Of a stretch of DNA of 38,306 bases, positions 593 to 20,303 are shown one piece after another (positions within the stretch are counted from its first letter, which is position 1; every line of letters starts with the position of its first letter). Under the pieces are notes generated by a model, which ran no database searches, had not been told where the DNA came from, and worked only from the letters and a program-made list of their open reading frames with translations. The stretch is from Dehalococcoidaceae bacterium (GTDB lineage: Bacteria; Chloroflexota; Dehalococcoidia; Dehalococcoidales; CSSed11-197), in NCBI GenBank assembly GCA_016928015.1, contig JAFGLQ010000119.1, positions 1-38,306 on the forward strand, given 5' to 3'. A program made the position numbers and the translations under genes.

Positions 593-1624
593 ATGAAAGC
601 CCTTATATTGATTGGCGGATACGGAACCCGGCTTGAGCCGCTTACCGTTGCTACTCCAAAAAGTATGGTACCGGTCATGAACCAGCCTTTCCTGGAATGG
701 GTTATAAGAAGGTTAACAGCCTTCGGTATCAAACAAATCGTGCTGTCTCTCGGGCACCTTCCTGACTTGATTTTGAATTATTTCGGGCAGGGTGATGCAT
801 TCGGAGTTGATATTAAATACGTTATAGAGAACACTCCTCTAGGTACCGGCGGCGGCATAAAAAATGCAGGCAAGTACCTGGACGAAACATTCTTGGTTAT
901 TAACGGAGACGTATTTACAGATATTGATGTAGCGTTAATGAATGAATATCACCATAGAACACATGCACTGGCGACCATTGCGCTGATACCGGTAGATGAT
1001 CCTTCCCGGTATGGAGTAATTGAAACTGAAAACACCGGCAGAGTTAAACGCTTTTTGGAAAAACCTGCCAGAGAAGAAATAACTACCAACCGAATCAATG
1101 CCGGGTTTATTATAATGGAGCCCGAGATTCTCAATTTCATTCCCGAAAACAAAAAATACAGCTATGAAAAAGAATTATTTCCTTCATTGCTTGAAATGAA
1201 TAAAGCCATATTCGGATATAAAACCGGGGAGTACTGGATCGATATTGGTACTCCGGCCAGCTATTTCCAGTTGCACAAGGACCTGCTAAGCGGTCGCAGC
1301 CGGCAGTATAACCCGCCGGTTAAATATATGAACCATTCAGATTCGTCGGTCGAATACGGAGATGGCTTTTGCTCTAAAGACACAGTCGTGCTGGGCAAAG
1401 GATGTGTTACCGGGCCCAAAGTATGCGTGCAGGACAGCATACTTTGGGAAGAGGTGACCGTCGGAGCTAATACCACCATAACAAACTCCATAATTGCCGA
1501 TAAATGTCGAATCGGAGACAACTGTCTTATCGAAGGCGCTGTATTCGGGCAGAAAGTTTCCATCGGATCCAATGTCAATATTTCCGCGGGAAGCCTTATT
1601 TACCCTGATTCAATAATTTGCTAA
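593..1624 (+). CDS. NDP-sugar pyrophosphorylase (mannose-1-phosphate guanylyltransferase-like) with C-terminal hexapeptide repeats
   Basis: MKALILIGGYGTRLEPLT...PKSMVP, LGTGG, NGD, FLEKP and YWIDIGTP motifs, plus a left-handed beta-helix tail. Confidence 0.9.
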   Translation: MKALILIGGYGTRLEPLTVATPKSMVPVMNQPFLEWVIRRLTAFGIKQIVLSLGHLPDLILNYFGQGDAFGVDIKYVIENTPLGTGGGIKNAGKYLDETFLVINGDVFTDIDVALMNEYHHRTHALATIALIPVDDPSRYGVIETENTGRVKRFLEKPAREEITTNRINAGFIIMEPEILNFIPENKKYSYEKELFPSLLEMNKAIFGYKTGEYWIDIGTPASYFQLHKDLLSGRSRQYNPPVKYMNHSDSSVEYGDGFCSKDTVVLGKGCVTGPKVCVQDSILWEEVTVGANTTITNSIIADKCRIGDNCLIEGAVFGQKVSIGSNVNISAGSLIYPDSIIC

Positions 1625-1666
1625 CAGCTCACAGTTAACAGCCTATTAACAAAGGAGAAAATATAC

Positions 1667-3616
1667 ATGCCTGAAATCAAACCTGAGTGCTCTCAGGCCT
1701 CCGGCCCTCAAAAAATATTTTCCTGGCCTTACCACCGGTATATGTCTATGTACCGGCATTCGCTGGAAGATCCTGAATCATTCTGGGCCACCGAAGCCAG
1801 AAAGCTTAACTGGGCTCAGCAATGGGAGAAGGTGCTTGAATGGCAGCCGCCTTACGCAAGATGGTTTGTAGGCGGTAAAATCAATGCATCCTACCAGTGC
1901 CTGGACCGTCATGTAAAAACATGGCGGCGTTCGAAAGTAGCTATCTACTGGGAAGGTGAAAATGGCGAAACCAGGACTCTGAGTTACTCCACCCTCTTCC
2001 GTGAAGTTAACCAGTGTGCCGATGTTTTATTGAAGCTTGGTGTAAAAAAGGGTGATATAGTTGCTCTGTACCTTCCCATGATTACCGAATTACCGGTATT
2101 TATGCTGGCTTGCGCGCGTATCGGTGCGGTGCATACCGTCGTATTTTCCGGCTTGAGCGCCCAGTCACTCGGTGACCGTGTTAATGACTGCAAAGCCAAG
2201 GTAGTGGTTACCGCGGATGGAGGCTATCGCCGGGGTAAAATATTTAAACTTAAGCAAACCGCTGATATCACGGTTAACAGTTGCCCTTCGGTTGAAAAAA
2301 TACTGGTGGTCAAGCGCACCGGTGAAGACGTACCCATGGTTGAAGGCAGGGATTACTGGTACAGTGATTTGATCGATGAAGACGTGCATTACGTGGCACC
2401 TGAAGCCTTTGAGGCAACTCACCCCTTATATATTTTATATACCTCAGGAACAACCGGCAAGCCAAAAGGTGTTGTTCACAGTACTGGAGGCTACCTGGTG
2501 TTCAATCATTCAACTTTTAAATGGATTTTCGACATACGAGAAGACTCTGTGTTCTGGTGTACAGCCGACATCGGCTGGGTTACCGGTCACAGTTACGCTG
2601 TCTATGGTCCTCTTTCTCATGGCGCTGCTATAGTGCTGTATGAGGGGTCTCCGGATTATCCCACCATCGACCGGTGGTGGGATATAATCGAAAAATACAG
2701 TGTAAATATTTTCTATACCTCTCCTACAGCTATCCGGATGTTCATGAAGTACGGTGAAGAATATCCCGCCAGGCACAATCTTTCCTCCCTCGAGCTGCTG
2801 GCCAGCGTGGGTGAGCCGATCAGCGCCGAGGCCTGGTGCTGGTATTACAAGCACATCGGACAGGAAAAGTGCCCCATTGTCGATACGTGGTGGCAGACCG
2901 AAACGGGAGGTTTCATGATCGCTCCCTCACCCGGTATCGAACCAATGCCGCTCAAGCCTGGTTCAGCCACTTTACCCCTTCCCGGCATTGATGTGGCAAT
3001 TCTGGATGCTGAAGGAAACGAATTGGGTACCAATCAAAAAGGTTATCTGGTTATAAAGAAACCCTGGCCCGGAATGCTTATGGATATTTACGGAGATTCC
3101 GAACTTTATAAGAAAAATTACTGGTCACGTTTCAAAGGCGTCTACTATCCGGGTGACTACGCAATGCGGGACGAAGACGGTTATTTCTGGCTCTACGGAA
3201 GAGCTGATGAAGTGTTGAAAGTTGCCGGCCATCGCATCGGCACTGCCGAAATAGAATCTTCGGTTGCCGAGCTCGATGAAGTTACCGAGGCCGCCGTCGC
3301 CAGCCGTCCGGATGAAGTTAAGGGCGAAGCCATAGTTTTGTTTATCAGCCTCAAAACCGGTTACAAGCCATCGGATGATCTCAAGAAGGCTATTGTGGGG
3401 CATATACGAAAAAATATTGGACCGATTGCGGCACCGGATGAAATATATTTTGTGCAGAGTTTACCTAAAACGCGCAGTGGTAAAATCATGCGCCGCGTTT
3501 TAAAGGCAGTTGCGTCCAACCAGGGGCTCGGCGACTTATCCACCATCGAGGATCAGGAATCCGTTACGGAAGTAAAAAAGGCATATGAAGCGCTTAAGGG
3601 CTGTACCAGAGACTAA
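1667..3616 (+). CDS. acs: Acetyl-CoA synthetase (acetate--CoA ligase)
   Basis: AMP-binding YTSGTTGKPKG, DTWWQTETGG and LPKTRSGKIMRR motifs; AAGGAG RBS. Confidence 0.95.
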   Translation: MPEIKPECSQASGPQKIFSWPYHRYMSMYRHSLEDPESFWATEARKLNWAQQWEKVLEWQPPYARWFVGGKINASYQCLDRHVKTWRRSKVAIYWEGENGETRTLSYSTLFREVNQCADVLLKLGVKKGDIVALYLPMITELPVFMLACARIGAVHTVVFSGLSAQSLGDRVNDCKAKVVVTADGGYRRGKIFKLKQTADITVNSCPSVEKILVVKRTGEDVPMVEGRDYWYSDLIDEDVHYVAPEAFEATHPLYILYTSGTTGKPKGVVHSTGGYLVFNHSTFKWIFDIREDSVFWCTADIGWVTGHSYAVYGPLSHGAAIVLYEGSPDYPTIDRWWDIIEKYSVNIFYTSPTAIRMFMKYGEEYPARHNLSSLELLASVGEPISAEAWCWYYKHIGQEKCPIVDTWWQTETGGFMIAPSPGIEPMPLKPGSATLPLPGIDVAILDAEGNELGTNQKGYLVIKKPWPGMLMDIYGDSELYKKNYWSRFKGVYYPGDYAMRDEDGYFWLYGRADEVLKVAGHRIGTAEIESSVAELDEVTEAAVASRPDEVKGEAIVLFISLKTGYKPSDDLKKAIVGHIRKNIGPIAAPDEIYFVQSLPKTRSGKIMRRVLKAVASNQGLGDLSTIEDQESVTEVKKAYEALKGCTRD

Positions 3617-19284: not shown

Positions 19285-19317
19285 TATAGATTTGATGTAT
19301 ATTCGCCCGGAGGTGTC

Positions 19318-20178
19318 CTGGTAGGCATTATAAACCTCGGCCGCCTCACATTAATTTGTCTTGTCGTGATAACCGGTGCAAGCTTGTTAGCGTTAGCGGC
19401 ATGCGCTGCAGATCCGTGGCAACCTGAAAATATTTTTACATCTTCCCAAGAGGGCTCAACGGGAAATATCGCCAGAAATATTACTGCTATCGAAGCATTT
19501 AATCTGTTAAGCATCAATTCAGACAATCGCGACTTTGTAATTTTAGACATAAGAACGTCCGAAGAAAGGACTCAGGCCTACATTAAGGGGTCGATTTTAC
19601 TTGACTGGCATAGCGGCTACTCTCAGCAGATAATCAGCCTGTTGGATAAAAATAAAACCTACCTGGTTTACTGAAAAAGCGGTTTGCGGAGTTCTTCCGC
19701 TTTGGAGTTAATGAAATCTCTTGAGTTTAACGAGGTTTATGACTTACATGGAGGTATCGTCGCCTGGGAAGAGGCCGGTTTGCCTCTGGTAACTCCTGAC
19801 ACTTCAGGCAGTACAAGTGATCCCGCCACCACTTTGCCCGCTGCCACCAGCCCGCCTTCATCCAGCGACAGTAAAACACCGGCAAAATTTGCCGTCTCGA
19901 ACCTTCACACGGATCCCCCTGTGCCTGTCCCTCCCAGCGGCCTCTTCTCTTTCATTGTTACGGTTACCAACGAAGGTGGTGTTGAAGGTTATTATGAAGC
20001 GGTCGTTGAAGTGGTTGAAGTTATCGGTGTGATAAGGCTGGAAATTGGGAGTGTATCAGAACGCGTATTGATTCCACCAGGCCAGAGCAGAATCGTAACG
20101 TTCGAACAAATACATCTGACTCAGGGAATTTTCGAAGCAACTATCGAAAAGGAAAACCTGTTATTCGAATGCACCTGA
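19318..20178 (+). CDS. Probable selenoprotein: lipoprotein with a Sec-containing rhodanese domain, S/T/P linker and Ig/CARDB-like domain (TGA 19672-19674 read as Sec)
   Basis: ORFs 19366-19674 and 19684-20178 are in the same frame, giving KTYLVY-TGA-KSGLRS where rhodaneses have YC(R/K)SGxRS. LDIRT..E before and LHGGIVAWEEAGLP after; lipobox LAAC; SECIS-like hairpin. Start uncertain (CTG 19318 after GGAGGT, or GTG 19366). Confidence 0.8.
19686..19700 (+). promoter_or_regulatory. Candidate bacterial SECIS element
   Basis: GCGGA-GTTCT-TCCGC hairpin; the loop begins with G, 16 nt 3' of the in-frame UGA. Confidence 0.65.
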
Positions 20179-20196
20179 GGCTGAGGGACCTGGTGA

Positions 20197-20215
20197 CGGC
20201 TGCCGTTGGCAGCCG
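20197..20215 (+). other. GC-rich hairpin: second SECIS candidate or weak terminator
   Basis: CGGCTGCC-GTT-GGCAGCCG, 8-bp stem with a G-first loop, no clean U-tract, preceded by three in-frame TGAs. Confidence 0.5.
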
Positions 20216-20303
20216 ATGCATGTTATGTTAAATCCAACTATTTACATTAAATTCTATGCCTTTAATGACTGTTTGTTCGCATTTCCATCCGGCTGACATG
20301 TTT

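Follow-up and report, generated by a model that had tools for sequence, protein, structure and literature searches.

Locus and 3′ end of the gene

The stretch of DNA analysed (the window) comprises 38,306 nt of contig JAFGLQ010000119.1, assembly GCA_016928015.1, of a Dehalococcoidaceae bacterium, order Dehalococcoidales. It carries a gene for a predicted lipoprotein with a rhodanese domain and a C-terminal β-sandwich domain. One in-frame TGA lies in the rhodanese active site. From position 20170 the frame continues as TGC ACC TGA GGC TGA GGG ACC TGG TGA, and a hairpin follows immediately. With the first two tail TGA codons read as selenocysteine (Sec, U), the protein ends in C-T-U-G-U-G-T-W. 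The loop G of the hairpin is located 26 nt after the first tail TGA and 20 nt after the second, and only 8 nt from the third stop. An earlier reading made from the letters alone (the original prediction) gave the tail codons, the 8-bp hairpin, its GTT loop, their coordinates and both distances correctly. Neither the window nor any homologue examined has a U-run 3′ of the stem, so the hairpin lacks the form of an intrinsic terminator; the absence of a proper U-tract had been predicted as well. A simple terminator scan does not call the hairpin in the 3′ untranslated region (UTR), only a weaker overlapping 6-bp hairpin.

Conservation in close homologues

Close homologues (L052–L056, 69–85% protein identity) were obtained as DNA from a metagenome scan, which also yielded the distant L057. 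L054 is a near-duplicate of L053, and L056 of L055; L057 equals L021 in sequence. Independent lineages are four close (window, L052, L053, L055) and two distant (L021, L064), six in total. Protein searches gave three C-terminal fragments of 84, 72 and 69% identity, each ending in …EKENLLFECT.

TGA GGC TGA GGN ACC TGG plus a stop is kept in 5/5 close homologues. Of the 18 nt of the tail, just one position varies, the wobble base of GGN, where G, A and T occur. The active-site TGA is likewise retained in all five. As third stop, L053/L054 have TAG and the window, L052 and L055/L056 have TGA, with the frame kept throughout. The three bases past this stop vary, so that the six bases after TGG exist in three versions, each with an in-frame stop. 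No change is seen in the hairpin core, GTT loop included. Pairwise identity averages 0.85 in the last 60 coding nucleotides, 0.95 in the tail, 0.56 in the six bases with the third stop, 1.00 in the hairpin core and 0.30 in the spacer past the hairpin. This spacer is orthologous, with the same DUF2177 membrane-protein gene downstream in L052, L053 and L055 and rdgB-dnaN upstream in L052 and L053. Third positions of codons for identical residues are only about 0.5 identical (window, L053, L055), so silent sites are near saturation. A small downstream open reading frame (ORF) and a Shine-Dalgarno role for the GAGG repeats were considered and rejected, nothing being conserved past the hairpin.

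Distant relatives with two tail TGA codons

Genome G002, of the same genus, encodes at locus L021 a lipoprotein that consists of the β-sandwich domain alone, 45% identical to that of the window. Its end reads …RFEVT, TGA GCT TGA, ten codons more with Trp last, and TAG. A 7-bp hairpin with loop AGTTG starts 30 and 24 nt past the two TGAs. Genome G144, of another family, encodes at locus L064 a lipoprotein with a Cys-active-site rhodanese and the β-sandwich domain, ending in …VLPG TGA GGC TGA GGT TAA; its 7-bp hairpin with loop GTT starts 23 and 17 nt past the TGAs. In none of the six lineages does either internal codon differ from TGA; the terminal stop is TGA in three, TAG in two and TAA in one. 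The exclusive use of TGA at the two internal codons points to Sec, because a working stop may be any of the three stop codons and a Sec codon may not.

Past the TGAs of L064 (1447–1491, minus strand) two mutually exclusive hairpins can form, each with a loop that begins with GUU. The alternative loops lie 6 nt apart, the spacing of the two UGAs of this gene, and each UGA could face a loop 17 nt downstream. A second alternative hairpin of this type is not evident in the window.

Hairpin and selenocysteine machinery

The genome of origin has a size of 1.6 Mb and a G + C content of 51%. Its DnaN has its nearest named relatives, at 80% identity, in entries labelled 'Dehalococcoidales bacterium'. 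It possesses a compact selC-selD-selA-selB cluster (contig C100:9373-13830). SelA is encoded in all of G002, G144, G142 and G141.

The bacterial Sec insertion sequence (SECIS) consensus of bSECISearch has a loop of 3–9 nt, a stem of 4–16 bp, a distance of 16–37 nt from the UGA, and G at loop position 1 or 2, usually followed by G or U (PMC13188914). The window hairpin lies within these ranges, having a 3-nt GTT loop on a stem of 8 unbroken pairs. L021 has AGUUG as its loop; the window, L052, L053, L055 and L064 share GUU, and the G is at an accepted position in all. Distances from both UGAs fall inside the consensus range: 26 and 20 nt in the window, 23 and 17 nt in L064, 30 and 24 nt in L021. 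In a consensus fold of five sequences the loop never varies and seven pairs are conserved, three of which show compensatory changes in both partners. Relative to the second UGA (UGA2), the window has a 12-nt spacer before the hairpin, and the loop bases are G24 and U25. This geometry is close to that of the Escherichia coli fdhF element, which has an 11-nt spacer, G23 and U24 (PMC8659212).

The hairpin assigned to the active-site UGA (loop GUUCU, 16 nt) is conserved in sequence in L052, L053 and L055. Other candidate in-frame TGA sites of the genome, taken from a home-made coding-potential scan, have GU-containing loops that start 16–21 nt past the UGA. UGA2, at 20 nt, is typical of these elements. 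Among the probable Sec sites of the scan, family searches confirmed only the C10 rhodanese and SelD. An Rfam scan of 19600-20300 at E ≤10 returned no SECIS family and two chance-level hits; the active-site element was equally unmatched. From sequence and fold we infer that the 3′-UTR hairpin would be a SelB-binding SECIS element that directs Sec insertion.

Table 1. Coordinates of the lipoprotein gene and its elements in the window, and of the Sec genes on contig C100 of the same genome
Feature	Position	Strand	Remarks
Coding sequence of lipoprotein gene	19366..20196	+	GTG 19366 (first canonical start) to TGA 20194-96, through three TGA codons
Lipobox Cys codon (…LALAAC)	19402..19404	+	First residue of the mature chain, predicted to be lipidated; read from translation
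Rhodanese domain	19522..19773	+	Pfam PF00581, E 9.4e-15, residues 76-159 of P0001
Active-site in-frame TGA, read as Sec (Y-U-K-S-G-L-R-S)	19672..19674	+	Aligns with Cys in P0006-P0009 and L064
SECIS-like hairpin for active-site UGA	19686..19700	+	5-bp stem, loop GTTCT starting 16 nt past the UGA; centroid structure
Pro/Ser/Thr-rich linker, predicted disordered	19807..19866	+	Predicted local distance difference test (pLDDT) <50 for mature-protein residues 136-155
C-terminal β-sandwich domain, seven strands, CARDB/Fn3-like	19879..20172	+	pLDDT >90; last strand ending at Cys 20170-72
Tail C-T-U-G-U-G-T-W	20170..20193	+	Kept in 5/5 close homologues; modelled as low-confidence flexible extension
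First tail TGA, proposed Sec	20176..20178	+	TGA in 6/6 lineages; aligns with terminal Cys of …EVGC relatives
Second tail TGA, proposed Sec	20182..20184	+	TGA in 6/6 lineages; loop start 20 nt downstream
Stop TGA, abutting hairpin	20194..20196	+	Read as the true stop; TAG in L053/L054 and L021, TAA in L064, in frame
SECIS-like hairpin, 3′ UTR	20197..20215	+	8-bp perfect stem (20197-20204 with 20208-20215), loop GTT 20205-07
tRNA-Sec (selC)	C100:9373-9467		
SelD	C100:9528-10454		Frame holds one in-frame TGA
SelA	C100:10820-11902		
SelB wing domain	C100:13693-13830		

Proposed decoding of the tail

The gene most likely encodes a lipoprotein with three Sec residues, both tail TGAs being decoded as Sec with one 3′-UTR SECIS for both, and the third TGA being the stop. 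This reading agrees with the original prediction, in which the first two tail TGAs may be recoded: TGA occupies both positions in 6/6 lineages, the tail is conserved in the manner of codons, the hairpin is kept and the Sec machinery is present. Termination at the third TGA, also predicted, is supported by the in-frame switching among TGA, TAG and TAA. Homologues with TAA or TAG at the predicted Sec positions, followed by unconserved sequence, would have been the contrary pattern; the internal codons are never TAA or TAG and the hairpin is kept. It is probable that two UGAs one codon apart are recoded through a single 3′-UTR hairpin of the SelB type, which would give a Sec-Gly-Sec end on a surface-exposed Sec-rhodanese lipoprotein.

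Decoding would proceed as follows. SelB·GTP·Sec-tRNA(Sec) would dock on the apical GUU loop, and with the first UGA (UGA1) in the A site and the loop 26 nt off, Sec would be inserted and Gly added. A second ternary complex on the same, still intact hairpin would then serve UGA2 (loop 20 nt off), and Gly, Thr and Trp would follow the second Sec. Finally, the ribosome would melt the stem and a release factor would read the third stop. This codon would act as a real stop because the ribosome there has entered or opened the stem, with the loop only 8 nt away. Truncated products ending at either UGA would be likely by-products.

Several points weigh against this reading. No bacterial case is known to us in which one hairpin has been shown by experiment to deliver Sec twice within three codons. 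UGA1, at 26 nt, falls within the consensus range but lies beyond the 16–21 nt of the other elements of the genome. Neither GGC nor ACC varies despite the free third base, which would equally fit a constraint at the RNA level. The original prediction had looked to homologous 3′ ends for a conserved hairpin with either TGA-GGN-TGA or C-x-C-x-C variants. The hairpin and TGA-GGN-TGA are conserved in the close homologues; Cys at both tail positions, or at the second position, occurs in none of the 111 hits of a profile search, and at the protein level a Cys counterpart of Sec is found among them for the first tail position only. In the domain-only lipoprotein L079, described below, the second TGA lies 9 nt from the loop with TAA next and looks like a real stop, so that TGA pairs in this family need not always stand for two Sec. 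The sample of lineages is small, with only four independent close and two distant ones.

The pattern is also weak when a single genome is considered. Stops of ORFs of at least 150 amino acids in the genome of origin are TAA in 862, TGA in 536 and TAG in 444 (n = 1842), so that TGA accounts for 29%. Among the 536 TGA-ending ORFs of this length, a second TGA two codons past the stop is present in 6 and at least three TGAs within seven codons in 5. By a crude home-made test for bacterial-SECIS-like hairpins, such a hairpin follows 36/857 TAA, 20/443 TAG and 20/532 TGA stops (about 4% for each stop type). Folding z-scores of the short hairpins against shuffles are −1.2 to −1.5, non-significant. 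The combination of tail and hairpin in one genome is real yet non-significant alone; it exceeds chance because it is conserved in relatives.

Alternative explanations

It is unlikely that only the first tail TGA encodes Sec, with the second as the stop, an end …C-T-U-G carrying a Cys/Sec pair like that of thioredoxin reductase (TrxR), and the bases up to the hairpin serving as SECIS spacer. A functional second stop should drift among the three stop codons; it is TGA in 6/6 lineages. Such an arrangement has parallels, as in UXX-star, KCU-star and SaoC proteins the stop follows Sec by two or three residues (PMC13188914), and in L079 the TGA three codons past the first looks like a true stop. Spacers between UGA and hairpin can be constrained, which could account for conserved bases here; however, the variable base between the second TGA and TGG is the third position of a codon, and an in-frame stop after TGG is maintained in all three 6-nt versions. 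By the standard of the other elements of the genome the hairpin is placed better for UGA2 than for UGA1. A lone Sec would moreover be partnerless in the G002 form, which has no neighbouring Cys.

Quite unlikely is that the first TGA stops translation, the later TGAs being back-ups and the hairpin a transcript-end or mRNA-stabilising structure. The lack of a U-tract past the stem in the window and every homologue speaks against a transcript end. Under this explanation the identity of GGC, GGN, ACC and TGG (0.95, vs 0.30 in the orthologous spacer), the absence of TAA and TAG at the first two stops, and the recurrence of the motif in another family and in relatives of 45% protein identity are all unexplained. 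It accords with the public gene calls, which end at …FECT, and with the genomic counts: TGA is a normal stop here, TGA-x-TGA and triple TGA occur after 6/536 and 5/536 of such stops, and similar hairpins follow about 4% of every stop type.

UGA is the leakiest stop codon in many bacteria. Nevertheless, read-through of the TGAs as residues other than Sec, whether by near-cognate tRNAs for Trp, Cys or Arg or through a reassigned code, is very unlikely, given that a reassigned code is rejected by the 536/1842 long ORFs that end in TGA, that a dedicated Sec system is encoded, that a Cys of relatives aligns with the first tail position, and that a conserved SECIS-type hairpin at the right distance would have no role in leakiness.

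Architecture of the protein

Most likely the product is an extracytoplasmic protein of a sediment bacterium of the Dehalococcoidales, in which a disordered linker joins the Sec-rhodanese to a β-sandwich domain and the flexible tail …C-T-U-G-U-G-T-W follows that domain. The rhodanese domain matches PF00581 with 55.3 bits (cut-off 22.2). Its catalytic loop is U-K-S-G-L-R(-S), vs C-K-S-G-x-R(-S) in Cys homologues. The alignment of the active-site TGA with Cys accords with the three-Sec protein of the original prediction. The same overall architecture is found in L052, L053 and L055, and comparable lipoboxes are present in L052, L053, L055 and L064.

An AlphaFold2 model built from an alignment of 26 rows, in which Cys replaces Sec, has a mean pLDDT of 85.6. 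Rhodanese and seven-strand β-sandwich are predicted with confidence, and the linker between them (mature residues 136-155) is modelled as disordered. The Cys of …FEC closes the last β-strand, and the seven tail residues are of low confidence, which suggests that the tail forms a flexible end of the modelled protein. In Foldseek searches the rhodanese part matches single-domain rhodaneses. The second domain matches, in Foldseek and in a PDB profile search, the Fn3-like C-terminal domain of GH3 glycosidases. Pfam CARDB (PF07705) does not match the window domain at E ≤10. CARDB matches are present in 4/18 family members (best E 2.6e-4), that of P0027 with 17.6 bits being below the 22.7-bit cut-off. 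No Pfam or NCBIfam model covers the β-sandwich domain with the tail (NCBIfam checked for window, L021 and L079, E ≤1 or 0.1); UXX-star NF041114/NF041211, KCU-star NF033934, SaoC NF040734 and others do not match it. Public gene calls break the frame twice, at the active-site TGA and after …FECT, and databases hold fragments only.

Wider family

The profile search of 1.84 billion representatives, which gave the 111 hits, returned many large multi-repeat proteins. Among the hits, lipoproteins of 120–175 residues and C-terminal fragments of rhodaneses stop at profile positions 103-105, with ends …FEVT, …FEAT, …FFCT, …FFKCI/F and often …EVGC. At profile position 105 the …EVGC proteins have their last Cys opposite the first tail Sec, a Cys/Sec pair at the protein level only and by called ends. 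P0012, P0023 and P0026 begin just past the position of the rhodanese Sec codon; a split Sec-rhodanese fusion is common, because these proteins begin there. Related multi-repeat lipoproteins have Cys-rich ends, …GFGCTSSCG and …PSCCSL. The end …EVGC stands directly before the called stop in the metagenome lipoproteins P0025, P0026, P0027, P0031, P0039, P0050 and P0063.

The genome of origin has a paralogue at C10:4855-5796 (plus strand). Besides its lipoprotein signal and T-rich linker, it contains a Sec-rhodanese with the site LVYUKKGGRS (TGA 5341) and a β-rich domain related to that of the window. Its end is …IGAG, TGA, six codons (G-S-G-S-C-S) and TAG. A 4-bp hairpin with loop AGUUA lies 15 nt past the TGA and is marginal against the SECIS model. 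By its sequence the paralogue may have a single-Sec tail of the U-x-x-x-x-C type. The Cys tail …IGFGCTSSCG of P0030 is comparable.

L079 (1489-1500, minus strand, G142) is a domain-only lipoprotein ending in …AIFGVG TGA GCT AAC TGA TAA, with a 5-bp hairpin, loop AGTT, 18 nt past the first TGA. It probably has one Sec, two further residues and then tandem stops, a 'UXX-stop' arrangement. No NCBIfam family matches L079.

Searches of whole genomes gave few relatives. A whole-protein scan of genome contigs confirmed none, and a scan of the contigs with alignment A5 gave only generic CARDB-like domains (L059-L061). The profile of domain plus tail matched, in 401 genomes of the class, the genome of origin only. 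An order-wide pattern search of 363 genomes had matches in 102, and the reversed-pattern control also matched often. Among 50 inspected pattern loci (about 85 further matches are listed), only those of the window and G002 have an upstream in-frame ORF of at least 60 codons. The G144 tail was found by a separate search. Twenty small ORFs from an order-wide domain search have no Sec tail; at least 12 have a basic, apparently membrane-anchoring C-terminus.

Comparison with known systems and function of the tail

Most of the 119 bacterial selenoprotein families in a 2026 review have one Sec, and a small subset has two or three (PMC13188914). Sec is located near the C-terminus in UXX-star families 1 and 2, KCU-star/DUF466 and the Cys-Cys-COOH SaoC, and binding of metal or of unknown small substrates is suggested for families with C-terminal Sec (PMC13188914). 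In these families, as in the window protein, Sec stands a few residues before the stop, so that the SECIS must lie at or past the stop. The window protein differs in having two proposed Sec one residue apart and a CARDB/Fn3-like lipoprotein domain fused to a Sec-rhodanese.

Paired Sec are listed as UxxU for NF041115 (a metal-binding protein), for FmdB proteins and for a Prx-like oxidoreductase, and as UxxxxU for TsoB (PMC13188914). There, as in the window, two UGAs are near enough that one downstream element would have to serve both. The spacing in the window, unlike in those families, is one residue (6 nt). TsoB, a rhodanese/DsbD fusion, shares the rhodanese domain and matches that of the window weakly (25 bits, cut-off 805). 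Rhodanese-like selenoproteins of forms 2 and 4 have the motif UxxG with one Sec listed (PMC13188914). The window loop U-K-S-G is similar, with Sec in place of the catalytic Cys in a single rhodanese domain. In contrast to these forms, the window domain is lipid-anchored by prediction and fused to a β-sandwich with two further proposed Sec.

The Sec-rich C-terminal domain of eukaryotic selenoprotein P contains CXU, UXC and UXU, and UXU is proposed to form soft-metal (Cd) sites (PMC11818150). It shares with the proposed window protein a C-terminal UXU and several UGAs read with a SECIS in the 3′ UTR. The two are non-homologous: selenoprotein P depends on SBP2, eEFSec and a distant kink-turn SECIS, whereas the window has a SelB-type hairpin within 26 nt. 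BslA, a secreted biofilm protein of Bacillus subtilis, carries a C-terminal CxC (C-G-C) whose intermolecular disulfides give dimers and tetramers (bioRxiv 10.1101/138099). Unlike the window tail, BslA has Cys in place of Sec; the likeness considered here is that of the C-terminal motif. The BslA fold is Ig-like. Mammalian TrxR has a flexible C-terminal Gly-Cys-Sec-Gly arm and MerA a C-terminal Cys pair. The arms of both are redox-active or metal-carrying chalcogen pairs that shuttle between catalytic site and substrate, a role that the tail may share. Both are cytoplasmic enzymes of different folds, with Cys-Sec or Cys-Cys instead of Sec-x-Sec.

The tail is found with a Sec-rhodanese (window), with a Cys-rhodanese (L064), and with neither rhodanese nor neighbouring Cys (L021). 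For this reason it must work as a module of its own. Recycling of the rhodanese active site by the tail, suggested in the original prediction, is weakened as a strict rule by L064 and L021. In most architectures seen the domain is joined to a rhodanese. The preferred function, put forward tentatively, is that of a mobile selenol/diselenide arm which could accept or resolve sulfur or selenium species of cell-surface rhodaneses. A soft-metal site would also fit, by analogy with UXU of selenoprotein P and with bacterial UxxU metal-binding proteins, as would intermolecular diselenide cross-linking on the model of the BslA disulfides. Diselenides are harder to reduce than disulfides and would suit sulfidic sediment.

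Novelty and significance

Sec-rhodaneses (UxxG), Sec near the C-terminus and paired Sec are already known (PMC13188914). A Sec-x-Sec pair is not listed there, and the terms 'UxU' and 'UGU' are absent from the main text of that review (PMC13188914); its supplements and the original family papers are outside this statement, and an earlier description is possible. What appears to be new, as judged by the sequences, is a family of C-terminal selenoprotein tails with Sec-x-Sec and a shared 3′-UTR SECIS, on a three-Sec protein. If true, the case would define a selenoprotein family of Dehalococcoidales that is new, extracytoplasmic and provided with three Sec per protein, with the tightest Sec-Sec spacing among the bacterial families treated in the main text of the 2026 review (PMC13188914). 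Dehalococcoidia include genomes with 46–49 selenoprotein genes in BSepDB (PMC13326102). A diselenide-capable tail, unlike disulfides, could stay functional in sulfidic, strongly reducing sediment. For annotation, the real product would carry three selenocysteines in place of the fragments in public databases. The finding also draws attention to a larger group of CARDB-like lipoproteins whose tails contain Cys or Sec.

Two UGAs 6 nt apart before one hairpin would also form a compact natural test case for mechanism. It bears on the speed of SelB reloading on a SECIS, on the tolerated UGA-to-loop distance (20 and 26 nt in the same mRNA), and on how the ribosome distinguishes Sec codons from a true stop 12 nt further on.

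Additional observations

No ATG, GTG or TTG is present between the dnaN stop (TAA 19282-84) and GTG 19366 (window 19285-19368). With GTG 19366 as start, the signal peptide has no charged N-region. Homologues start about 12 codons upstream of this GTG, with ATG in L052, L053 and L055. The aligned position in the window is ATA (19330), with ATT just before it; GGAGG is located at 19309-13 and CTG at 19318. The real start of the window gene may lie upstream at a non-canonical codon, or the sequence may contain an error.

L017 (about 1453-1917, plus strand) and L022 (about 1402-1875, minus strand) encode small Cys-rhodanese lipoproteins in two other families of the order. Both end in …TVK, TGA and a short in-frame extension to the next stop, possibly by chance. 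Further candidates of the coding-potential scan are C11(-):1016, C22(-):27091, C45(-):7837 and C89(+):19043, each with a downstream GU-loop hairpin. The types among these four are a rhodanese F-Y-C-D-U-P (C-x-U), a peroxiredoxin-like FTFVUPTE, C-G-T-C-H-U and G-G-G-U-P.

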